From NCBI GenBank assembly GCA_964388035.1, contig CAYLZE010000008.1:22000-85999 (forward strand): a stretch of 64,000 nucleotides of DNA, written 5' to 3'. Numbering within the stretch: position 1 is the stretch's first letter; each line of letters starts with the position of its first letter. The notes under the pieces are model-generated. The model ran no database searches and was not told the DNA's origin. It saw only the letters and a list, made by a program, of their open reading frames with translations. This document shows, one piece after another, positions 10,170-54,602 of this stretch. The DNA comes from an uncultured archaeon. GTDB lineage: Archaea; Asgardarchaeota; Lokiarchaeia; Sigyniarchaeales; SOKP01. Position numbers and translations under genes: made by a program.

Positions 10170-10964
10170 TCATTTTTTTTTCCAAGGTTCTTTTTCTAAT
10201 TCTGAAATAATGAATTTCTTAAATTGAGAGCTTAAAATGAATGCATTCTTGGGATCATGGGTAAATAAATAGAAACGATAAGAATCCGAAATACGTGGGC
10301 TTACATTCCATTCATATCTTCCTCCCAAGGGATCATTGATAGTAAAAGTGTACTCTGAATTGATAGAATTGATAGCTACCCAGTGAAATCCTCTATTTAA
10401 GGTTAATGAGGGAATTTTATTATAATACTTCGCGTTTAAATGAGACCAAAGGATTTTAATTTTTTTTTCATATTTTCTGTTATCATTTTTAAAATCATTT
10501 TTAGTAAAATAAAGACTGCCCGTACCATCGGGATATTCTTGCTGTTGAGGAAAAAACGCTCCACCAAAAAGATAAAATAAAATTTTTAAATCGGCATCGG
10601 TTCGCATGGTCTGAGCAAAAATTTGTAACATTTTCGAGTTAATGCGGTTTTCCATTTGTAAGGTCGGCTCCTTAAATTCATGGATAATGATTGGCATGTA
10701 ATCATGTACAAGTGACTCATTTTGCTTCAAGATATAGGCATTCAAGATATTAGAGCCTATACATTTTAATAATATATAACTCAAGCTATAAGCCCATTTT
10801 AATTCCTCTTTTAATTGATTCTTATTTGTAGAAATATAATTACTTATTTCACCCAGAATGATTTTATAATTAACATTACTCTCGGGATTAATCATCATTA
10901 AAAATGTACTAAGCCCACACCCATTGGGTAATTGAGAATATAGGGGCAAATCATATTTCTTCAT
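10170..10964 (-). CDS. Putative papain-like (C39-like) cysteine peptidase
   Basis: YSQLPNGCG (oxyanion Gln, catalytic Cys), FHWVAI (His) and INDP (Asp) in C39 order. Confidence 0.6.
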   Translation of the reverse strand: MKKYDLPLYSQLPNGCGLSTFLMMINPESNVNYKIILGEISNYISTNKNQLKEELKWAYSLSYILLKCIGSNILNAYILKQNESLVHDYMPIIIHEFKEPTLQMENRINSKMLQIFAQTMRTDADLKILFYLFGGAFFPQQQEYPDGTGSLYFTKNDFKNDNRKYEKKIKILWSHLNAKYYNKIPSLTLNRGFHWVAINSINSEYTFTINDPLGGRYEWNVSPRISDSYRFYLFTHDPKNAFILSSQFKKFIISELEKEPWKKK

Positions 10965-11349
10965 TTGATAAATAATTCTAAAACTGAATATAATTAAAAT
11001 TAATGATTTTTATCTCGTCAGCTCGATTCAATATAAAATATTTTGGATGGAATCAAGAAAAAAGAAATAAGAATATGTTATCATTTAAGGCAAGATATTT
11101 TAAATCTGAAGCAAGGAAGCGTCTGCTAATTCTTTTAAAAGTTTATTTCGAATAGAACCTTCAATAACTGCCTCTTCCTTGGCTTCTCCAAAACTTTTTA
11201 TTAATTCTTTATCGACAAACATCGTGATTTTTATTTACTTCTTTATATATAAACTCAAAGAAAATGTATCAGATATAGGTAAATGAGTTTTTATAATAAT
11301 CCAATTGGATTTCTAATTTGCTTATTTTTAAAAAGAATAAAGAATGGAA

Positions 11350-12096
11350 TTAATAAAAAAGATTTTCTAGCTTGCAGTATCCAACTACATCATCCCGTAA
11401 AAATATTTGAAATGGGAAGGTTTTATCTTTATAGGGTTTAAGAATTTCTAAAAGCCGACCATGATAAGGGCTTTCAAACATTTCTTTATTTTCCATTCCT
11501 ACACCTTCAGAATATTGATATTGCTGCAGTACAAAATTACCCTCAAAATAATTACTTTCTAAGAATTTTAAGATTAGATCAATGTCCTCTGGAACATGAA
11601 GATTCTCAACATAAGTAGTACGTACTTCAAAATCAAGACTTTTTTCTTCATTAATAAGTTCAAAGGATCGAATAATTACTTCTGGTTTTATCTCGACTTT
11701 AGTTATCCGCTTCAATTGTTCTCGTTCAAGTGGGCCTTTGATATCCAAAGCAAATCGATTCACGTGAGGAATAAGGCTCTCGATTACTCGAGGATTGGAG
11801 CCATTTGTATCAATACTAATATATTTATTCAATTTTGAAGCACGAATGCAAAAATCTAGTAGATCTTTTTGTAAGGTGGGCTCCCCTCCTGTAATACTTA
11901 TTGCACTCACTAAATAATTGTTTTTAATCAAGGTAAGAAGTTCACTAATACTATATTCTTTTCCCACTTTAAGGTTTAATAAATATTTATTATGGCAAAA
12001 TTCACACTTAAAATTACATCCCACCGTGAAAAAAACCATGCTTGATTTCCCAGGAATATCTTTCGTGGAAATTTCTATTATCCCGCCCAGTTTAAT
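11350..12096 (-). CDS. nrdG: Radical SAM glycyl-radical activating enzyme (anaerobic RNR activase, NrdG-like); extended to an ATT start
   Basis: IKLGGIIEISTKDIPGKSS N-terminus, GCNFKCEFCHN, ITGGEPTLQ, DTNG, DIK and EVRTT. Confidence 0.85.
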   Translation of the reverse strand: MKLGGIIEISTKDIPGKSSMVFFTVGCNFKCEFCHNKYLLNLKVGKEYSISELLTLIKNNYLVSAISITGGEPTLQKDLLDFCIRASKLNKYISIDTNGSNPRVIESLIPHVNRFALDIKGPLEREQLKRITKVEIKPEVIIRSFELINEEKSLDFEVRTTYVENLHVPEDIDLILKFLESNYFEGNFVLQQYQYSEGVGMENKEMFESPYHGRLLEILKPYKDKTFPFQIFLRDDVVGYCKLENLFY

Positions 12097-12152
12097 TCAA
12101 CTTTCACCTTCTTTTTGAATTAAAGATTCTATAATTAAAATTAGTTATTGTA

Positions 12153-12878
12153 TTAAATATTGTTTACAATGATTGGAATGAGGATACCAAAAAATTTTCT
12201 CAATAGATTAACATTTAATCTAATCCTTCTAGAGAGTTCCAATTGAAATGCATTAATATTTTCCCTTTGGAAGTAGTGATAAAGAATATAGCCTCCTGAA
12301 TATGCGACGTTATAGTCATCTAATCCAAGGCCGTCATCCAGCGTGAATTTACGAGATAATTCTAATACCAATTCCGAAAAAACCCAATATTTAGGTTTTT
12401 CTGAGTCGGCTTTATTGGAGGAAGTCAATAGATATTTTAGAGAGTTTCCAAAAATATTGCCTAGTATGAAATCTGGATAATCTGATCGGGGTCGCGTGTA
12501 TCCATGAATATCAATTACTAAGCACTTCTTATACTTTTCAGTACATTCATTGGAATAGTGGGTCAAGATATCATGATAAAAATCATAAATCTCTTTTGCT
12601 TCAGAAGATCCTTTAAAATATGATGAAATTGAAAGAGGAGGTCTATTAAAATCAATCTTGCTTCTATGAATTTTACTAATAACATAATAAGGTCTAATAT
12701 CATGTTCATGTAAAAGCCTTACGATCTGTTTAGTTATCCAGAAGGTATTATCATCTGGTAATTTATCTCCTTTTAATTTGTCAGGGATTATAACAGGTTT
12801 TTTAAACCCTCCATGAGGACATGATAAGATAAGTGGCACATTCCCTTTCTCATGCTCGATGTATCTTTGAATCCACAC
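12153..12878 (-). CDS. N-formylglutamate amidohydrolase family protein
   Basis: PLILSCPHGG, RSKIDFNR, YH, IDIHG, YSGG and QLE. Confidence 0.85.
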   Translation of the reverse strand: MWIQRYIEHEKGNVPLILSCPHGGFKKPVIIPDKLKGDKLPDDNTFWITKQIVRLLHEHDIRPYYVISKIHRSKIDFNRPPLSISSYFKGSSEAKEIYDFYHDILTHYSNECTEKYKKCLVIDIHGYTRPRSDYPDFILGNIFGNSLKYLLTSSNKADSEKPKYWVFSELVLELSRKFTLDDGLGLDDYNVAYSGGYILYHYFQRENINAFQLELSRRIRLNVNLLRKFFGILIPIIVNNI

Positions 12879-13253
12879 TTCAAATAAAGAAATTATTTAA
12901 TTTATACTAGTAATAATCAATCACAGCAAAAAAAATAATGTAACTTGAAATGCATTCCTCATCTTTCTTTGTTTTTTTATAATCAGTTAATCATTTTGCT
13001 CTTTTTTTATGTACTTTCAATTAACTATAAACATATTATATTATAATTTTTTGAGAAACGTTCGAATATTTAAATTGTCGACTTATTCAATAAATACGAG
13101 CACAGATAACAACTATATATATGATATAACTTATAGAGGCAGACATCAAAACAAAAGTTTTATAAATTCTCCTATTTTATTTATATTAAACAATTTTGTA
13201 CATTTCCAGTCTTTTTAATATCAAATATAGGAATTAAATATGGGGATTTAATA

Positions 13254-13547
13254 ATGGAATTAGATGATGTAATTTCTTTTTTGAAAAAGAAAGGATTCAA
13301 GGACACTTTTTACGTTTTGACAAAGTTTAAAAACAATAAGACCGACAAACACACCTTTTATGATGAGTTAAATAAATTCAGCTATTATAACTCATTTTTT
13401 AGAGTAAAGGAAGATCTCCTTGACAAGGGCCTTATAGAGATTAAAAATCATAATAACATGAAAACTATAGGGTTGACGAAAAAAGGGGAGAATATTTACG
13501 CGAAATTAATGGAGATTAACCAGCTTATTAATACCAAAAATACTTAA
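13254..13547 (+). CDS. Small winged-helix DNA-binding-like protein
   Basis: LLDKGLIE...IGLTKKG wing motif typical of MarR/ArsR-like wHTH proteins. Confidence 0.6.
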   Translation: MELDDVISFLKKKGFKDTFYVLTKFKNNKTDKHTFYDELNKFSYYNSFFRVKEDLLDKGLIEIKNHNNMKTIGLTKKGENIYAKLMEINQLINTKNT

Positions 13548-13642
13548 AATTTAAGATTTAACGATTCTTATTATTCTTAATTTTTTATTTATCACCTTTA
13601 ATTCTTATCTATATTTCGATTAAGTGAGACTTTTATTTCCCC

Positions 13643-14275
13643 ATGATATTTAAAAAAGTAATTATTGGACCATTAACTACCAATTGCTATATTTTCGGCT
13701 CATCTCAGACAAGAGAGGTCATCGTAATAGATCCCGCATTTGAAATCGATCAAATTCAGCAAAATATCAATACTTTAGGAGCGCGTCCTATAGCGGTATT
13801 AATAACGCATTCGCATTTTGATCACGTCATGAAGGTTAAAAAATTCTTGCGTATTTATAATGTACCTTTAATGTACAGCAAGAGGGATTACAAAAATGGA
13901 ATGAGTCCTTTAGTAGAAGCAGATCGATGGTTAAATGAAGGGGATACTATAAAAGTGGGGGAATTGACAATACACGTATTAGAGACTCCCGGACATTCTC
14001 CAGGTTCTCTCAGCTATTATTGTAAAGATGTGAAAGAATTTGATGAAAAGAAAGTGGACGGCTTGATATTTACGGGAGATTTGCTATTTAGGAGAAGTAT
14101 TGGCAGATCAGACGTGCCAGGTGGAGACCAAAGAATTTTATTTGAAAGCATTAAAAATAAAATCATGTATAATGGAGAATTATCTGATGATTTTATTGTC
14201 TTACCCGGCCACATGGGATCTACCACCATCGGTGAAGAAAGAAAACAAAATATGTTTAGACAATATTTCTTGTAG
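13643..14275 (+). CDS. Metallo-beta-lactamase fold hydrolase (glyoxalase II-like)
   Basis: THSHFDH, TPGHSPG, FTGD and PGH. Confidence 0.93.
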   Translation: MIFKKVIIGPLTTNCYIFGSSQTREVIVIDPAFEIDQIQQNINTLGARPIAVLITHSHFDHVMKVKKFLRIYNVPLMYSKRDYKNGMSPLVEADRWLNEGDTIKVGELTIHVLETPGHSPGSLSYYCKDVKEFDEKKVDGLIFTGDLLFRRSIGRSDVPGGDQRILFESIKNKIMYNGELSDDFIVLPGHMGSTTIGEERKQNMFRQYFL

Positions 14276-14318
14276 AAATAGGATTATATAAAGGATTTTT
14301 TATCATATTGCGACGAGA

Positions 14319-14804
14319 ATGACAAGAAAAGTATTAGTATTTGAACCAAAAAAATGTATTGGGTGTAGACTTTGCGAACAAATCTGCTCCATGACTCATT
14401 TTAATATGACTAATCCAAAAAAAGCGTCGATTCGTATTATACGGGATACCGTGGCACAGCTTGATCTTGCAATTTATTGTCACCAATGTAAAAATCCTCC
14501 TTGTGTAAATGCGTGCAAGTTTGATGCACTTTCAATAGAACCCATGACTCATGCGATCCATGTAGAATCGGAAAAATGCATTTTATGCAGAAAATGTATC
14601 CAAGAATGTCCCCATGCTGCTCCATCCATCCATCCGACGGAGGAATATGTTTTAATTTGCGATTTGTGTAAAGGAAAACCTGCTTGTGTAGAAATTTGTC
14701 CCGAACACGCCATTCAATATCTTGAGGTTGCGAGGGCAGATAACATTTATAAATCAATTTACGTGAAAGAAATGGCGCAAAAGTTAATTCAGGAGGAAAA
14801 TTAA
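14319..14804 (+). CDS. 4x[4Fe-4S] electron-transfer subunit partnered with AOR
   Basis: CIGCRLCEQIC, CHQC..PPCVNAC, CILCRKCIQECP and CDLC..PACVEICP; ends 1 nt before aor. Confidence 0.9.
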   Translation: MTRKVLVFEPKKCIGCRLCEQICSMTHFNMTNPKKASIRIIRDTVAQLDLAIYCHQCKNPPCVNACKFDALSIEPMTHAIHVESEKCILCRKCIQECPHAAPSIHPTEEYVLICDLCKGKPACVEICPEHAIQYLEVARADNIYKSIYVKEMAQKLIQEEN

Positions 14805-14805
14805 G

Positions 14806-16632
14806 GTGGTTTTAGCAACAAGCATCTATGGAAAAGTTCTGAGAATAAACCTTACTGAGAAGAATTATAGAGTAGATACTTATGGTCGACAAGAAGTAGA
14901 ACTCTTTTTAGGCGGAAGAGGATTGGGAGCTTATTTTTTATTCAAAGAAGTTCCTCCCAGAATGGACCCATTAGAGCCAGAGAATAAATTGATTTTTATG
15001 AATGGCCCCTTGGCTGGGACATTAATTCCAGGAAATAATAAAGTATGCGTTACTTTTAAATCACCACTAACAAATAGTTATTCTTACTCTTTATGTGGAG
15101 GACATTGGGGTCCCGAGTTAAAATTTGCAGGGTATGATGGATTAATCATTGAAGGAAAGGCTGATCGCCCCGTATTCATATGGATTAATAATTCAGAAAT
15201 TAAGATTAAACCTGCTGAAAACATTTGGGGAAATACGATTCCAAAAACTGAAGAATTAATTCGAAATGAATTAGGTGATGATAATTCCATTCAAATTGCC
15301 GGGATTGGGCAAGCAGGGGAAAAATTGGTTAGTTATGCTTGTATTACTGCGGGATTATATAGAGAATTTGGTCGAGGCGGCTCGGGTGCGGTAATGGGTT
15401 CGAAGAATTTGAAAGGAATTGCAATAAGTGGGTCAAATGATGTTAAGGTGGTATGTCCAGAGGATGTAATAGCGTTAAGTAAGAAACTTATTCAAAATGT
15501 ACGAAATTCTAAAATAGGTCAAGTTCGAAGAATTTATGGGACGATGGAATTAGTTGAGCGCATTAATAATGCCGGATTTTGGGTGACACGTAATTTTTCT
15601 GAAGGCCATTTTAAGGATGGATACAAATTGGAAGGTACTCAAATGCGCGAAAAAATAATTTCCGGGGATAGTTCCTGTTTTGGATGCCCAATCGGATGCG
15701 GAAAATGGACTTTCATCCAAAATGAAGAAGACTTGTCAAAAATTCAAATGGAAGGTCCCGAATTTGAAACCGTAGGCATGTTGGGTTCCAATTGTGGCAT
15801 AAGTAGTTGGAAAACGCTTCTAAAGGCATCAAAGATTTGTGATACTTACGGACTCGATACCATTAATGCTGGAGCGTGCATTTCTATGGCGATGGAAGCT
15901 TTTGAAAAGGGAAGATTGACCCTAAAAAATACAGATAACATCGAGTTAAAATTCGGCAACGATGCTGCCCTCCTTGCAATGTTAGAAAAAATTGGTAATC
16001 GAGAGGGATTAGGGAATATTTTAGCAAAAGGCGTAGAACGAGCGGGAATTGAGTTAAAAATAGTTGACTTAGCAAATCATTCTAAAGGACAATCTTTTCC
16101 CGTATATGACCCTAGAGGTGCTAAAGCAATGGCTCTCACGTATGCAACATCCCCTAAAGGCGCTCATCACATGTATGCGACCACTTTTGGATTAGAACTC
16201 AGTCTTGGGAACCGATTTGAAGAAAAAGGAAAGGGTGTTATTGAAAGAAATCAACAATTTAGCATGGCCATTGTGGATTCGATTGCACTCTGTTCCTCAA
16301 TGCGGGGTGGAATACCTCTTGAGGATCAAGCCGAAGCATTTTCTCTTGTGACCGGAATTCCCATGAATGTTGAAAGGTTAACTTTAGCTGCTGAACGGAT
16401 AATAAATCTTGAGCGAATGTATAATGTAAGACTGGGCTTTAATAGGAGCAATGACACTCTTCCTGAAAGATTTACCAAAGAGACATTATCCGATGGTAAT
16501 AGCAAGGGGCAAATAGTAGATTTGAATTATTTATTAGATGATTATTACAGCATTATGGGGTGGAACTCTAACGGGGTTCCAAAAGAGAAGAAATTGAAAG
16601 AACTTGGATTACTCGAGTTAATTACTCCTTAA
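14806..16632 (+). CDS. aor: Tungsten-dependent aldehyde:ferredoxin oxidoreductase family enzyme
   Basis: LGGRGL, KSPLT, LKFAGYD, GRGGSGAVMGSKNLK, CFGCPIGC, EGPEFET, DTYGLDTI and YYSIMGW. Confidence 0.95.
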   Translation: MVLATSIYGKVLRINLTEKNYRVDTYGRQEVELFLGGRGLGAYFLFKEVPPRMDPLEPENKLIFMNGPLAGTLIPGNNKVCVTFKSPLTNSYSYSLCGGHWGPELKFAGYDGLIIEGKADRPVFIWINNSEIKIKPAENIWGNTIPKTEELIRNELGDDNSIQIAGIGQAGEKLVSYACITAGLYREFGRGGSGAVMGSKNLKGIAISGSNDVKVVCPEDVIALSKKLIQNVRNSKIGQVRRIYGTMELVERINNAGFWVTRNFSEGHFKDGYKLEGTQMREKIISGDSSCFGCPIGCGKWTFIQNEEDLSKIQMEGPEFETVGMLGSNCGISSWKTLLKASKICDTYGLDTINAGACISMAMEAFEKGRLTLKNTDNIELKFGNDAALLAMLEKIGNREGLGNILAKGVERAGIELKIVDLANHSKGQSFPVYDPRGAKAMALTYATSPKGAHHMYATTFGLELSLGNRFEEKGKGVIERNQQFSMAIVDSIALCSSMRGGIPLEDQAEAFSLVTGIPMNVERLTLAAERIINLERMYNVRLGFNRSNDTLPERFTKETLSDGNSKGQIVDLNYLLDDYYSIMGWNSNGVPKEKKLKELGLLELITP

Positions 16633-20154: not shown

Positions 20155-20502
20155 ATGAGTAAAGAAGAGATTGAGCCGAAATTAGCTGAATTAATGGATA
20201 ATGTTCCCGAATGTGAAGGTTTAATCGCTGCGGATAAAAATGGAACGGTGATCGTAGGGCAAACTATCACGGATATGGATCATTCTAAAATAGCAAAGGC
20301 TTGTGCGAAAATCATTCAAGATTCAAATGAATTAGGGAAAGATATCGGAAAAGGATCCTTAAAAGCGACCACGATTGAATTGGACAATGGTTATGCAGTT
20401 TTAGTTGGTTCAGACGAGACAATATTAATATGTTTAACGGGTATTGATGGAAAAGCTTCTTTAGCCCTATTAAAACGTAATCTTATCTCAATTTTAAAAT
20501 AA
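20155..20502 (+). CDS. Roadblock/LC7 (MglB/LAMTOR-like) protein
   Basis: L.ELM.NVP..EGLIAADKNG.VI, followed by helix and LG..IG.G.L....IE...G topology. Confidence 0.8.
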   Translation: MSKEEIEPKLAELMDNVPECEGLIAADKNGTVIVGQTITDMDHSKIAKACAKIIQDSNELGKDIGKGSLKATTIELDNGYAVLVGSDETILICLTGIDGKASLALLKRNLISILK

Positions 20503-20616: not shown

Positions 20617-23600
20617 TTATTCCTTATCAAGACCCTCTTTCTTTAATAAATCGTCTAACTTAACTTTAGCTTCTTTCTCTTCTTTTTTAGCTTCTTTCTC
20701 TACCGTTGGTTTTTCTTCAGAAGGTACTTTTTTTGTTTCATCAGTCTTTAATTCTGAAACCTTGACATATTTACCTTTTACTTTTTTCACTTTGGGTTTC
20801 GCTTTTTCCAGAGGGGTCTCAATCTTACGGATCAGTTTTCTTGCATACCAAATAGTAAAAAGCCAAATTCCTCCAATTCCTATTAAGATTGATACAGTCA
20901 TGACAACAGATGGGAAAGGAGGATCCAAGATATCTAAAGAAGTCTTACCTTCAGTTCTCACAATTTGTTTAGAAAGGACATTTTGTCCTTTAATAGTCAC
21001 CGTAATATTCAACAAGTCATAGGTTGTATCAGGTACAAAAAAGTCTATAGTAATTGATGTAGATTCACCTGGTTTCAATCGAGCTAATTCATAATTATTT
21101 ATGGCAACGATGGTAAAATTAATTCCCTTTTCCAATGCGATATTGGTCTCTAATATTGAAACTGTAGAATTCCCCGTATTTAATATAGCAAAAGTTAAAG
21201 TTCCATTTTCATTACGATACACGGCTTGATTCGGTAGAACATCAAAACCTAGAGAAAGTTCATTAAACTCGGAAGTAATATTGATAGGAATTTCATGACT
21301 TTTACTTAGAAAATTACTATCTCCTGGCCAATATAACCGAAATTTAAAATCTTCCATAATATATAGGGGCACAGTATCAATTTCAAATTCTAATATTCCC
21401 TCCGAATCAGATCTTACACCTGTAATGTTTATCCAAGACGTTCCATCAAAATACTCGCAGGAAACTATTTTACCCGCTAAGATTTCATTAAACTCTGTCT
21501 CCATGATGGAAGAAATAGTTACCGTATCTCCTTCAATGGGATTTTGGGGCGTATAAGTAATATTTACAAATTTGCTATTTATTTTAAAAATATTTGATAT
21601 ATTTGAACTTATTAAAATACTCATGTAATTTTCATCAAATAGGTTCACGATAAAATAGGTTTTCTTCGGAGAATACAGACATTCATCTCTTTCAAACACT
21701 TTTGTGATAGTATTACTTGAAGTATTGAATGAAGTCTTGGTTGAAATGATTTCTCCTTCGAAATCATGTTCATCTGCAAGCGTAATTAAAGAATATTGTG
21801 GACTATCAAAATAACCCACATTTTTTCCTTCAATATATATTAATACTCTTGTTTTTACTCCGCCTAACCTCATGGGACAATTAACACCTTTCCAGGATTT
21901 TGTTGCGGGATCATATTGAGGCATCATCATGCTTAAATTATACATGATGCTATCTTGATTGTTGCCAAAATATTTCAATAACACGGTATCGCTTGAATTT
22001 TCGGCGATAATCCATTGATCATTTGCCAAAGACAAGAGTTGTACTTTAATCCTGACATTGAGATCGGTTATGTCATCTCTGTTTTGAAGCAAAATTTTAA
22101 ATGTAATTTCCTCTCCTGGATTCAAAATGCTCTCGTTTTGTCTGAATGAATTTAAAGATACGTCAAAATCTAAACTTCCTAACTCGTAAGAAAATAATTG
22201 GTTGATAGAAAGATTACTAATGGTATAATAATCAGGTCTGTTTGTACCGGTTGTTTCATTAACAGTAGCCATTAGGATGGAATATTTATTAAGAATTCTC
22301 GTGATAAAATTTCCCTCAAGCACGTTACTTCCTACTTCGGGATAGAAAGTTGCTCCCGTTAAATCTACCTCATAATCATTTATTTGAATGAAAACCTTTT
22401 TACAGCCAATTGCAGTACCATTAGTCCAAAAAAAGCCAATTTGGTAGCGCCCCAAAATGGGGATGGAAGTAGTGATATTAATGATAGTATTGTTAGAAAA
22501 ATCATATTTCAAAAGGGAATCAATCAAAACACCATTATTAGAAAAGAGTTCTGCAGTGGGAACTCTCGTATTATTGGGATAAAAAAGAGTAGCATTCACA
22601 CTTCCTCCGTCTGGAGCAATCCCAAATTCATCTTGAATGTATACGCTCAAAGACACGTTATCTCCATACATGAATCCTTCTGTTTCCCATAAAATGCCTT
22701 CAAAATTAATGAAACTATGCATTTGATTAATGGAATTATAGCTTGTCAAATTTAGCACGTAAGAGCCGTTATATACGGGCATTGATACATTTATTAAGGC
22801 GGTGGTTAGAATTAATTTATTAAATAGAGGGTCGTCAGATAATTCTGAAGCACTCCCTATTTGATCGAGAACATCTCCATCAAGGGGGTTTGGTGTTGTT
22901 AGATTAAGGGGTGTCCAATAATTAGGAAATATAAACCAATATTCTGTAAAATTCCAGTTAGGATAATATTGATTTGGATCGAGCGTATCATTTAAAGTCC
23001 AGAGAGGAATATCGTTATAATATATCTTAAATAGGGCGGTGACATTTTCATATCTATAAATTTTAGCAAGGTAAGTCACGTTAAAAAGTAAACCTTTTGT
23101 AAGAGTGATATATCCTGTAAAATTAACAAAAAGTGTATTAAAGCGATCAGCTTCAATATAATCCGTAAGATCATGGAGCCATCGACCGCTTCCCCATTCC
23201 ATTATATTAACATTACTTTCATTATATGGATAAACATCAATTCTTTGGTCAACAAGTGTTAAATTCTGTATTCTTAACTCACCATTAAAATCGGAAGGCA
23301 TATATCCTCGTGTAACGTTTAATTCAAAAGAACTTGCGTCTAATTGTGTAGATGTATATGGAGTCGAAGTAGTTTCAATTAACTTTTTCGCATTAGTCCA
23401 CGTAACCCCATTATTGGTGGTTCTTTTTAATTGCTGTTCTAATTTTCCATCCCCAATTGATGCATCAGAAGGGATGGTAACTAAGCTATAGATTAAATCG
23501 CTCGAACTTGAGTTTATCACAATAAAATAATTTCCAATACCCAGGTTCACCGCATTAATTGAACTTAAATCAAAATAAGTAATTCCATCCCCTTTAAAAG

Positions 23601-26383: not shown

Positions 26384-27562
26384 TTGCGAGACACTACCAA
26401 AGTAGAAGACTGTGTTGCCTTACTTGATGTTTCACGTTCAATGTTAAAAACAGACTTCAAACCGAATAGATTAAATAATGCAATTGAGACCTTAAAAAAT
26501 TTCATTCACTCCAAGTTATCCTTGGATCCAAGCGATAAAATTGCCCTTATCACGTTTGGTGGGAATGCGAAAAGATTAGTACCTTTTACAAATGAAGAAA
26601 CTATTTTGATAAATTCATTCCAAAAAATTCGCGTGAGTGGAAGGGGTAACATATCTCAAGGAATTTCTTTTTCTATCCAATTATTAATAAAGGAAATGCA
26701 AAAGCTAGGAGGAAAAATTTCAAGAATCTTCATTCTCACGGATAATAAAATAATTGAAGAAGATGGAAAATTAAACGAAATTGTTGAAGTAGCAAAGGGA
26801 TTGGGCGTTTATGTGGATGTGTGTCAAATAGGGAAAACAGAGGATTATCGTCAAAGCAAATTGAAACTCCTAACTCGGCAGACCGGAGGGGAATATGGAT
26901 ATTTCAATAATACTAAAGCGTTAGTCAATTCTGGAAAATCATTCGCTTCCAAAAAAGAATTAAAATTTTCACGCGATTATTTCGCTCGGGATAATAAAAG
27001 TGAAAACGCGCCCTTATTAAATGAGATCGCCCTACCATTAAAGCGACCCTCTGTTTTAGAATTAAAAGCCATGATAAATAGTCACGATACGGATTTAGAA
27101 AAATGTCAGATATGTCATTCCATGAAATCTCCGGTAACTAATGCCGATCTCTATTCCGAGGGGCGCATATGCCCTTCATGTGAGCATCCCATGCATTTAT
27201 CGTGTGCAGCCATGTGGGCAAAGGGGACAGAATATTCCGAAAGCGTGTTTCGATGCCCGTTCTGTTATTACCTATTAAAAATACCTACCTCCGCCCTCAA
27301 GATTGCTGAGATAAGGCAAGCCAATGCTCAAAACACTACTAAAGACACTTTGAAAGAACATAAACAAACAAGAATGAAATTAATCCCTAATGAAGAAGTT
27401 GAATCGATTTACGGTTCGTGTAGTTATTGTCGAAATATATTCATGGGAGAGCACGATGTATATCAATGCGAGCAGTGCGGGGCTTATTATCACGAACCTT
27501 GTCTCCAAAAAATGTTCAAAGAGCTAAAAAGTTGCCGTAATTGTGGTGCTCAAATAGTATAA
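26384..27562 (+). CDS. VWA-domain protein with two C4HC3 RING-variant fingers (Ssl1/p44-like architecture)
   Basis: MIDAS DVSRS with DFKPNRL; fingers CQIC..CPSC..H..C..W..CPFC and CSYC..CEQC..H..C..CRNC. Confidence 0.85.
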   Translation: MRDTTKVEDCVALLDVSRSMLKTDFKPNRLNNAIETLKNFIHSKLSLDPSDKIALITFGGNAKRLVPFTNEETILINSFQKIRVSGRGNISQGISFSIQLLIKEMQKLGGKISRIFILTDNKIIEEDGKLNEIVEVAKGLGVYVDVCQIGKTEDYRQSKLKLLTRQTGGEYGYFNNTKALVNSGKSFASKKELKFSRDYFARDNKSENAPLLNEIALPLKRPSVLELKAMINSHDTDLEKCQICHSMKSPVTNADLYSEGRICPSCEHPMHLSCAAMWAKGTEYSESVFRCPFCYYLLKIPTSALKIAEIRQANAQNTTKDTLKEHKQTRMKLIPNEEVESIYGSCSYCRNIFMGEHDVYQCEQCGAYYHEPCLQKMFKELKSCRNCGAQIV

Positions 27563-27695: not shown

Positions 27696-29759
27696 TTGAT
27701 TACGATGCCTAACGAGGATAAACGAAAATGGGTGGTGACTTCGGCTTGGCCTTATGTAAACGCTACACCGCATTTAGGCACGATGGTCGGAAGTGTCTTA
27801 TCTGCTGACGTTTTTGCCAGATTCCTACGATTATTGGGAGATGAAGTGGTGTTTGTTTCGGGATCCGATGTTCATGGAACTCCCGTGGCAGTAGAGGCAA
27901 AAAAGCAAGGGATTTCTGCTGAGGAATTAGCGGAAAGAAATCACGAAATAACCGCTTCATTATTCAAGCGTTGGAATATATCTTATGATAATTACACGCA
28001 AACCCATAATCCAACCCATATTGAATTTTGTCAAGATTTTTATCTTGAAGTGCAAAAAAATGGGTTCGTGGAAGAGAAGGAAATCGAATCGTTATATTGT
28101 GAAAAGGATGCCATGTATCTCCCAGATAGATTCGTAGAAGGGGAATGTCCTTATTGTGGAGCAGAAAATGCAAGAGGGGATCAATGTGATAAATGTCAAA
28201 AATTATTAACTCCTTTAGAATTAGTAAAACCTCGATGTGCGATTTGTGGTAATCCTCCTGTTATTCAGAAAACTAGACACTGGTATTTACTTTTTCCAAA
28301 ACTACAAGATCAATTGAAAGCGTTTATTGAACAAAATGAGATCATTCCACAAAATGCCAAGCAATTATGTCTCAATAGTATTGAAGAAGGATTGCCCGAA
28401 CGTGCTATCACCCGAGATCTGGAATGGGGCATTCCAGCAAAATTCAAGGGAGCTGAGGGTAAAACTATTTATGTTTGGTTTGAAGCAGTACTGGGATACA
28501 TTTCTGCAGTAAAGGAGTGGGCGGATAAGATACTTAAAGTGCCCGAAAAATTCGATTACTTCTGGAAGGATCCTAACACGAGAACGGTTTATTTTATTGG
28601 AAAGGATAATATCATTTTTCATTTGATTGTTTTTCCGGGACTTATAATGGCTTACAATAAAAATAAAAAGAAAGATGAAAGACTGGTGCTTCCCTATAAC
28701 GTTTCTTCAACGGAATTTCTCATGTATGAAAATGATAAGTTTTCTAAATCCAGAGGAGTAGGAATATGGATTGATGAAGCATTGGAATTAGCCCCTTTAG
28801 ACTATTGGCGGTTCAATTTGATTTATAACAGACCCGAAAAGAGCGATACGTCTTTTTTATGGTCTGAATTTGAAAATGATATTAAGATGCTAAATGATGT
28901 GATTGGAAACTTCATCCACCGCACGTTAACTTTTATCAATAAGCAATTCAAGAGCAAAATTCCCGAACAATTAAGCTTCGATGAAAAAGATAAGGCGTTC
29001 GCAGTAAAAATTAATTCTATCGCTAAAACTATTGGAAACTTGATGGAGCAATTTGAATTAAGAAATGCTCTCCGAGAGATCGTTAATTTTGCGCGAGACG
29101 GAAATGTCTATTTAAACGATAAAGCGCCATGGCATCTGATTAGCAAGGAGAAAACTTTAGCGGGACAAGTTTTTAACTTATGCGGACAGGCAGTTTATGC
29201 TCTTGCAGTTCTACTAGCACCATTTATACCGGATACATCGCAGAGGATCTTAGAATATTTGAATTATTCTAAGGGATTGGATCACATTGAGTGGAATAGC
29301 ATATCAGAAAAAGTATTGGAAAATGGGCATTCAATAAAGAAACCACAACCGTTATTTACAAAATTAGATATTGATGAATTGAAAGAAAAACTAAATGACA
29401 TTAGGAAGGATAAAAGTAAAATGGTAGAAAAACAGGAAGATATTTCATATAATGAATTTAAAAGATTGGATATCAGAATTGCTCAAATACTCGAAGTCGA
29501 ATCCGTTCCAAAAACAGAGCATTTATTAAAATTGACCATTGATATTGGTACAGAAAAAAGAACTCTAGTAGCAGGGTTGGCTCAACATTATAAACCAAAT
29601 GAATTAATTAACAAAAAAATTGTTGTTCTTACAAATTTAGAACCGAAAAAACTGAGAGGAATAACAAGTCAAGGGATGCTTTTAGCTGCAGTAGAAGGAG
29701 ATAAGGTAGCTATTTTAACACCTGATTCAGAAATTCCCCCGGGAGCCAAGATAGAATAG
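27696..29759 (+). CDS. metG: Methionine--tRNA ligase (probable start ATG 27705)
   Basis: TSAWPYVN..PHLG, GSDVHG, Zn knuckle, ITRDLEWG, YVWFEA, GKDNIIFH, KFSKS and a C-terminal tRNA-binding domain (SQGMLL). Confidence 0.98.
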   Translation: MITMPNEDKRKWVVTSAWPYVNATPHLGTMVGSVLSADVFARFLRLLGDEVVFVSGSDVHGTPVAVEAKKQGISAEELAERNHEITASLFKRWNISYDNYTQTHNPTHIEFCQDFYLEVQKNGFVEEKEIESLYCEKDAMYLPDRFVEGECPYCGAENARGDQCDKCQKLLTPLELVKPRCAICGNPPVIQKTRHWYLLFPKLQDQLKAFIEQNEIIPQNAKQLCLNSIEEGLPERAITRDLEWGIPAKFKGAEGKTIYVWFEAVLGYISAVKEWADKILKVPEKFDYFWKDPNTRTVYFIGKDNIIFHLIVFPGLIMAYNKNKKKDERLVLPYNVSSTEFLMYENDKFSKSRGVGIWIDEALELAPLDYWRFNLIYNRPEKSDTSFLWSEFENDIKMLNDVIGNFIHRTLTFINKQFKSKIPEQLSFDEKDKAFAVKINSIAKTIGNLMEQFELRNALREIVNFARDGNVYLNDKAPWHLISKEKTLAGQVFNLCGQAVYALAVLLAPFIPDTSQRILEYLNYSKGLDHIEWNSISEKVLENGHSIKKPQPLFTKLDIDELKEKLNDIRKDKSKMVEKQEDISYNEFKRLDIRIAQILEVESVPKTEHLLKLTIDIGTEKRTLVAGLAQHYKPNELINKKIVVLTNLEPKKLRGITSQGMLLAAVEGDKVAILTPDSEIPPGAKIE

Positions 29760-54290: not shown

Positions 54291-54602
54291 ATGATAAATT
54301 ATTGTTCAAAATGTGGGTGCAAAATAAGAAACTATATTCCAGAGAAAACTAATTACTGTTCTCATTGTGGCGCTAAATTGTTGCACCCAATGGATTCAAT
54401 CCCTTCTATTTTTAAAACCTGTTCAATTTGTCACAAACGAGTGAATGTTAATTCCAGTCGTATTGTTGAATGTTCTTATTGTAATGCCATTTTTCATGTC
54501 TCTTGTATCACGCCTTGGCTTGTCCAGCATAATACGTGTCCATTATGTCAAAATGTCTATTTATTACCAAAATTCCACGAATCTATTATTATTCGGGAGT
54601 AA
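54291..54602 (+). CDS. Zinc ribbon plus RING-variant finger protein (putative E3 ligase-like)
   Basis: CSKCG..CSHCG, then CSIC..CSYC...FH.SC..PWL....TCPLC. Confidence 0.85.
   Translation: MINYCSKCGCKIRNYIPEKTNYCSHCGAKLLHPMDSIPSIFKTCSICHKRVNVNSSRIVECSYCNAIFHVSCITPWLVQHNTCPLCQNVYLLPKFHESIIIRE

Follow-up and report, generated by a model that had tools for sequence, protein, structure and literature searches.

Archaeal homologues of XPB and XPD have long been known, and in eukaryotic TFIIH the RING of p44 (GTF2H2/Ssl1) binds the VWA domain of p34 (Tfb4). In papers on TFIIH the structural backbone of the eukaryotic complex is said to consist of p44 and p34, and no archaeal counterpart of either was found in the open-access literature searched. 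VWA and RING domains also meet in the plant RGLG ligases, which are E3 ubiquitin ligases with an N-terminal vWA and a C-terminal RING (PMC12647413), so that the combination is a working E3 design. Here we analyse a gene encoding a VWA-RING-RING protein in a 64,000-nucleotide stretch of DNA (the window) from an uncultured archaeon (GTDB lineage Asgardarchaeota; Lokiarchaeia; Sigyniarchaeales; SOKP01), which covers positions 22,000 to 85,999 of the forward strand of contig CAYLZE010000008.1 in assembly GCA_964388035.1. An earlier note, made from the letters of the window, had read this gene as coding for a VWA domain and two C4HC3 fingers, with a resemblance to TFIIH p44/Ssl1 and to Rpn10.

The encoded 392-residue protein is the closest prokaryotic full-length look-alike of TFIIH p44/Ssl1. 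From its sequence and its structural models we propose, and give an even chance to, a cytosolic E3 ligase or adaptor of RING type, in which a VWA domain of Ssl1/Rpn10 type would select the partner. The VWA domain, of Ssl1/Rpn10 type and with the metal-site residues D-x-S-x-S and D120 kept, would dock a substrate or partner, while finger 1 would recruit, through Ile243, Trp278 and Pro292, a ubiquitin-charged E2 (ubiquitin-conjugating enzyme) of the organism's eukaryote-like ubiquitin/E1/E2 system. Finger 2 would serve as a second protein- or E2-binding module, with a paralogue's VWA domain as a possible partner, in the way the p44 RING binds that of p34. The parts of the gene, and its downstream neighbour, are:

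26384..27562, plus strand: whole gene, with a TTG start, for the 392-residue VWA-RING-RING protein of clade A (open reading frame list, orthologues)
26405..26953, plus strand: VWA domain of Ssl1/Rpn10 type, residues ~8-190 (Pfam, family profile, VIA fold search)
26426..26440, plus strand: D15-x-S17-x-S19 of the metal-ion-dependent adhesion site (MIDAS) type, joined by D120 (26741..26743)
26453..26470, plus strand: D24-F-K-P27-N-R29 motif, common to p44, Rpn10 and BatB
26942..27088, plus strand: conserved linker, residues ~187-235, with FASKK and PL..EIA.PL.RP motifs (orthologue alignment)
27104..27265, plus strand: finger 1, residues 241-294, a C4HC3 RING of FANCL/Ltn1/NSE1 type (ligands, VIA, weak Pfam matches)
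27419..27544, plus strand: finger 2, residues 346-387, a C4HC3 RING resembling RING-H2 domains and the C-terminal RING of p44 (VIA, profile, HMMER)
27696..29759, plus strand: metG, the downstream neighbour, for methionyl-tRNA synthetase with a tRNA_bind domain (Pfam)

The domain composition read in the earlier note was confirmed, and all the strings that it quoted are present, including DPSDKIALITF, LLDVSRSMLKTDFKPNRL (which spans residues 13-30) and, in the last finger, CSYCRNIFMGEHDVYQCEQCGAYYHEPC..CRNC. Zinc ligands follow the order C241-x2-C244-x18-C263-x2-C266-x4-H271-x2-C274-x16-C291-x2-C294 in finger 1 and C346-x2-C349-x12-C362-x2-C365-x4-H370-x2-C373-x10-C384-x2-C387 in finger 2. The TTG start is supported by the orthologues, since the N-terminus lines up with those of more than 100 of them (start pattern M-x-D-x-K-[IV]-ED). 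Over residues 9-172, Pfam returned VWA_2 at 60 bits (E = 3e-16), VWA at 41 and Ssl1 at 36 (cut-off 27; 37.5 bits in a second scan), and its matches to the two fingers (RING, PHD, C1, Prok-RING_1, FANCL_C) were all weak; the E value for VWA_2, together with more than 300 homologues, excludes chance. An AlphaFold2 model of the whole protein has a mean predicted local distance difference test score (pLDDT) of 86, with linker residues 210-235 confidently modelled as short helices and residues 195-201 at low pLDDT, and the C-terminal half, which the two fingers make up, reached a pLDDT of 82 when modelled by itself. We also considered reading the linker segment L..EIA..L as resembling a ubiquitin-interacting motif (UIM), and dropped this as its spacing departs from the UIM consensus and Pfam gave no match.

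The more than 300 homologues, of ~390 residues, are all from Asgard archaea and carry at best the annotation 'VWA domain-containing protein'; no description of the family was found in the open-access literature searched. When 1.8 billion representatives were scanned in full, 842 relatives came up, the top ones again all Asgard, and the best bacterial sequence matches were BatA-like proteins at E = 1e-10 to 1e-8. In a sample of 201 genomes spread over the Asgard phylum, with families as defined by GTDB, the fused protein is present in every genome of the two families of a single order (40 of 40 and 3 of 3), at 2-9 copies of the family per genome, whereas none turned up in the other 24 families sampled. 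Five weak matches outside the order proved to be generic VWA proteins beside FHA/zinc-ribbon genes, or isolated RING fingers, and in this follow-up VWA and RING domains occurred outside the order only as separate proteins. In a quick maximum-likelihood tree of Asgard family members, clade A, which holds the protein studied here, and clade B, which holds a 397-residue paralogue on contig C120, had support values of 100 and 98 respectively in the Shimodaira-Hasegawa-like approximate likelihood ratio test; since each includes both GTDB families, the duplication is older than the split of the order. Besides these two there are minor clades. Among the family members in this genome is a tandem pair of strongly diverged copies on contig C16 (8305-9684 and 10265-11542 of the fetched stretch, plus strand), which have the VWA domain and finger 1, end in a zinc ribbon, lack finger 2 and sit on a long branch. 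Two proteins placed inside clade A, P0008 and P0029, bear the NCBI labels 'Hodarchaeota' and 'Thorarchaeota'; P0008 is identical to a copy in a genome that GTDB puts in the same family as our archaeon, and the NCBI labels therefore conflict with GTDB.

The gene is strongly conserved. Mean column identity among 114 clade-A orthologues is 68%, and invariant positions in that set comprise all 16 zinc ligands, the MIDAS-type residues D15, S17, S19 and D120, the motif residues D24, P27 and R29, and A188, K190, K191, P210, L211, A216, L219 and R221 in the linker. Across a wider set of 32 family sequences 15 of the ligands do not vary, and 90% or more of the sequences retain C373. A conserved synteny, a GC content (0.36) similar to that of its surroundings and presence in each of the 43 genomes sampled from the order mark the gene as native and subject to selection.

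Finger 1 carries I243 (in C-x-I-C), W278 (four residues after ligand 6) and P292 (in C-P-x-C), which we take, from established RING-E2 structures, to be E2 contacts; none of the three varies among the 114 orthologues, and 90% or more of the wider family retain them. The model of the C-terminal half was compared with 48,161 chains in a VIA wide search, which is independent of Foldseek. The best match of finger 1 was FANCL (4ccg_Y; Z 6.6, root-mean-square deviation (rmsd) 1.7, 62 aligned), followed by 7kzp_L (Z 5.9), Ltn1 (5.5), NSE1 (5.2) and SLX1 (4.8), in agreement with the FANCL/Ltn1-like character that the earlier note had given to this finger; Pfam likewise returned FANCL_C, PHD and SLX1_C here, all weakly. 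For finger 2 the best match was the p44 RING (8ebs_E residues 327-386, Z 7.7, rmsd 2.3, 60 aligned; 5nus_B, also Z 7.7), with the ordinary RING E3s ZNRF1 (6.8), RNF12 (6.7) and RNF165 as near-ties within ~1 Z unit of it. Profile comparison of finger 2 pointed to Arkadia (34 bits)/RNF165 at E = 1e-7 and also to RLIM and RNF38, all of which its fold resembles too, and zf-RING_2 matched all of 22 family members. Chains from RING-E2 complexes are among the fold matches (4ccg_Y, 6w9a_B, 5ywr_B).

The genome has what a ligase of this kind would work with. Three genes for E2 enzymes (UQ_con) are found on contigs C42, C38 and C13, the first within a eukaryote-type ubiquitin operon (~10771-16014, minus strand) that encodes a ubiquitin-like protein of 114 residues, an E1 (ThiF, 407), the E2 (UQ_con, 177), a JAB/MPN protein (266) and a 387-residue protein with no Pfam match whose C-terminus fits the finger-2 profile. 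The suggestion of an E3 ligase in the earlier note would thus fit both the conserved E2-contact positions and this ubiquitin/E1/E2 operon. Elsewhere in the window, 54291..54602 (plus strand) encodes a 103-residue protein in which a RING finger follows a zinc ribbon at the N-terminus (zf-RING_2 37 bits, above cut-off; C-x-I-C, Trp and CPxC present) that resembles a small stand-alone E3.

Several observations weigh against an E3 ligase or adaptor. Neither finger has the linchpin Arg after its last Cys, and the individual finger matches are modest (Z 5-8), in a range where common small folds score too. The C4HC3 spacing is one shared by PHD fingers, and those are not E3s. The gene lies outside the ubiquitin operon on contig C42, which has a RING protein of its own, and its neighbour metG offers no obvious clue to a substrate. 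In the VWA domain, clade A has Gly at the usual MIDAS Thr position, as judged by eye from the alignment, and the MIDAS motif is degenerate in several other subfamilies.

As to the type of the VWA domain, a single-sequence phmmer search of the PDB fails to separate the candidates (Rpn10 31.5, BatB 30.2 and p44 25.9 bits). With the family profile, Rpn10 (70 bits, E = 1.4e-18) and p44 (62 bits, 3.8e-16) come above 4rck (49), BatB (40), 4jdu (38) and the ArnAB VWA (37 bits), and the VWA of BABAM1, from a deubiquitinase complex, is matched as well. Profile and fold scores gave no grouping with BatA/ViaA, the outcome that the earlier note had named as contrary to its proposal, the order of Rpn10 and p44 over the BatA/B type (38-49 bits) being a ranking among solved structures and not a tree. 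Foldseek with the AlphaFold2 model returned full-length p44/Ssl1 chains as its top 20 matches (E = 2.5e-18, ~390 columns); for the VWA domain alone, template modelling scores were 0.85-0.87 for p44/Ssl1, 0.77-0.83 for Rpn10 and 0.68 for BatB. VIA gave Z-scores of 25.7 for Ssl1, 25.1 for p44, 24.7 for Rpn10 (rmsd 1.9 Å), 22.9 for 4jdu and 22.1 for BatB. The fold order of the modelled domain, p44/Ssl1 before Rpn10 before BatB, is consistent between the two methods, with small margins. In the ESM Atlas, queried with the 54%-identical orthologue P0061 and used as a lead only, the nearest non-self clusters were eukaryotic p44 (0.91, 0.90, 0.87) and then TFB4 (0.81).

In the reciprocal direction, the Ssl1 model (PF04056), which derives from p44, reaches its cut-off in 43 of the 201 Asgard genomes, all of this order and in frames of VWA-RING size (27-49 bits), and its one match elsewhere in the sample scored 20.8 bits. 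For control, those BatA-like proteins with the best matches to our protein score 16-31 bits on Ssl1 and 70-92 on the generic VWA model, on which our protein scores 41. In the comparison of Ssl1 with generic VWA models that the earlier note had proposed, our protein passes the Ssl1 cut-off, with the caveat that VWA_2 and VWA score higher. At the level of motifs, the start of the human p44 VWA domain, DGSRTMEDQDLKPNRL, aligns position for position with our protein, and D24-F-K-P27-N-R29 has counterparts in p44 (DLKPNR), Rpn10 (DFLPTR) and BatB (DVQPSR). The p44 motifs that the earlier note had given are correct against the solved human sequence, and its D.S..M...D..P.R motif does occur in both p44 and Rpn10; it is not specific to them, since BatB carries DISNSMLAQDVQPSRL, that is, D.S..M...D..P.RL, and the motif alone is therefore not diagnostic for p44/Rpn10. 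The likeness to p44/Ssl1 and Rpn10 is nonetheless real and specific when the family profile, the fold search, HMMER, finger 2 and the distribution of Ssl1 matches are taken together.

That Rpn10 heads the profile matches, with BABAM1 also among them, and that a JAB/MPN gene lies within the ubiquitin operon, would be in keeping with an Rpn10-like receptor or docking subunit of the ubiquitin pathway, in which the VWA domain anchors the protein to the proteasome, PAN, Cdc48 or a JAB/MPN complex, while ubiquitin or substrates are bound by the fingers with no ligase activity. We regard this as very unlikely. Neither the UIM family (Pfam scan, E <= 10) nor another known ubiquitin-binding motif (Pfam) was found in the protein, Rpn10 is without zinc fingers, fold scores place p44 level with or above Rpn10, and the invariant Ile/Trp/Pro trio suggests E2 binding.

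Under another explanation, RING/PHD fingers were joined in this order to an ordinary prokaryotic VWA domain like that of BatA, or a eukaryotic p44 was transferred to the ancestor, so that the resemblance says nothing on the origin of TFIIH and the function may lie outside ubiquitin, for instance in PHD-like chromatin or protein binding. Restriction of the family to one order among the 27 Asgard families sampled, with VWA and RING domains separate elsewhere, speaks for it, as do the Ssl1 scores of BatA-like proteins, the D..P.RL motif that these have in common with our protein, VWA Z-scores only 2-3 units apart and the PHD spacing of the fingers. The family profile, however, favours Rpn10 and p44 over the BatA/B type by 13-32 bits, the colinearity with p44 reaches both finger positions, and the GC content is native; moreover, the order split only after the A/B duplication and the synteny is deep, and any transfer must therefore be old. 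On this balance the explanation is unlikely, and the E3 ligase or adaptor stays our preferred reading.

The colinearity with p44 was seen with HMMER, which aligns human p44 in three segments, of which only that of the VWA domain (55.8 bits) is significant alone. GR(Y/F)CPxC of finger 1 aligned to YFCPQC of p44 with a negative score (-2.1 bits), and finger 2 aligned to p44 residues 339-389 with all eight ligand positions in register and one gap, the human p44 RING (HVYVCAVCQNVFCVDC...SCPGC) corresponding position for position to our protein. The finger that the earlier note had called extra relative to p44 is indeed a full C4HC3 RING, but p44 is not empty there, having its eZnF at that place, with YFCPQC opposite the CPxC. 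C1_4 (PF07975) gave no match in our protein, in its genome (E <= 1) or among the top 25 families for 22 family members, although the p44 RING is the top structural match of finger 2, and no p44-like N-terminal extension was found, model residue 4 aligning to p44 residue 55.

These findings bear on whether the protein could be a proto-TFIIH scaffold, whose VWA domain would bind and stimulate archaeal XPD and whose fingers would build a p44/p34-like pair with the clade-B paralogue. Full-length p44/Ssl1 chains as best fold matches, a finger 2 closest to the p44 RING at an equal chain position within a colinear alignment, and p44 followed by TFB4 as ESM neighbours argue in this direction. So do two XPD genes in the genome (contigs C40 and C129, neither that of our gene) and two universal paralogues A and B, of which B alone in this genome matches the Tfb4 (p34) model, at 25.7 bits. 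That score is below the cut-off of 27, however, and Tfb4 is matched by some clade-A members too; we rejected a mapping of A to p44 and B to p34, because Tfb4 matches occur in both clades, and both clades score ~35-37 bits on Ssl1. Besides the missing C1_4 match and N-terminal extension, Tfb2 (p52), Tfb5 (p8) and PH_TFIIH (p62) were not found in the genome (96.7% complete), eukaryotic models being liable to miss distant forms. The gene has no linkage to XPD, XPD is widespread in archaea without this family, and finger 1 retains E2-contact residues that p44 does not need. A scaffold of this kind is thus quite improbable, and the role as a TFIIH antecedent or XPD partner put forward in the earlier note gained no support here: C1_4 is unmatched, p34, p52, p62 and p8 were not detected in the genome, no link to XPD was seen and the family is confined to one Asgard order.

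The resemblance to p44 shows shared building blocks and probably a shared VWA ancestry; a TFIIH function does not follow from it. A descent of p44 from this Asgard family is possible; that the eukaryotic p44 (perhaps p34) lineage has in this family its surviving archaeal sister, or its ancestor, seems doubtful to us. If it were so, the structural backbone of TFIIH would have begun as an Asgard VWA-RING ubiquitin ligase, in which the middle finger later lost E2 binding and shrank to the eZnF and the C-terminal RING was retained as a VWA-binding module.

The gene order is surface protein, M20 peptidase, the gene studied here, metG and an RtcB-like gene, and is conserved in the first GTDB family. 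In 9 of the 10 loci fetched, the second family included, the clade-A gene stands directly upstream of metG or within ~1.7 kb of it, and this adjacency is kept across both families even at ~27% identity between the clade-A proteins. The 133-bp gap before metG holds T-runs and a ribosome-binding site, so that co-transcription is not evident. No link to TFIIH or repair was seen in this neighbourhood. Further upstream in the window, 20155..20502 (plus strand) encodes a Roadblock/LC7-domain protein (43 bits) that adjoins a 1386-residue surface protein rich in N-x-S/T sequons. Paralogue B on contig C120 (8729-9922 of the fetched stretch, minus strand) is likewise a VWA-RING-RING protein, 31% identical to that of clade A studied here, and is divergent from the gene for a 410-residue Gtr1/RagA-Arf-like GTPase (10252-11484, plus strand). 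This pairing recurs in 10 of 11 clade-B loci, drawn from the two GTDB families.

An Asgard protein that is colinear with p44 and bears the hallmarks of an E2-binding RING offers a testable idea on the origins of TFIIH, namely that its scaffold subunits and the related Rpn10 VWA may have their source in the ubiquitin system of archaea. Should that idea be wrong, the family, universal in its order, with two ancient paralogues and up to nine copies per genome, still contributes to the ubiquitin system of Asgard archaea an E3 class that is undescribed and probably a major one.

Compared with known systems, the protein has the VWA fold and the D.S.SM...D..P.RL motif in common with BatA/BatB, which differ in having N-terminal membrane helices, a BatA domain and no zinc fingers; no BatA domain was found in our protein by Pfam, the VWA domain begins at residue 8, and the BatA/BatB type lies 13-32 bits below Rpn10 or p44 on the family profile. 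Rpn10/PSMD4 is the top sequence-profile match to the VWA domain and shares with it the D.S..M...DF.P.RL start and a loop without the MIDAS Thr, but Rpn10 has UIMs and no zinc fingers, and its alignments show neither the second Ser nor an Asp at the D120 position, whereas our protein keeps D-x-S-x-S and D120. The RINGs of FANCL, Ltn1, NSE1 and SLX1 resemble finger 1 in ligand pattern, fold, CPxC and a Trp at the fourth residue past ligand 6; no other domain is alike, the fold matched is small and common, and the likeness does not establish family membership. With the plant RGLG ligases the shared feature would be the use of a VWA domain as a protein-binding module beside a RING that recruits the E2 (PMC12647413); RGLGs have a single RING, and with no RGLG structure among the listed profile and fold matches we saw no specific relationship. 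TFIIH p44/GTF2H2/Ssl1 differs from our protein in its middle module (an eZnF, as against a full FANCL-type C4HC3 RING with E2-contact residues), in its C4C4 RING (finger 2 is C4HC3, the fifth ligand being His and not Cys) and in the 2-9 paralogues of the family per Asgard genome of the order, but it has the same succession of VWA domain, middle zinc module and C-terminal RING-like finger at nearly equal length.

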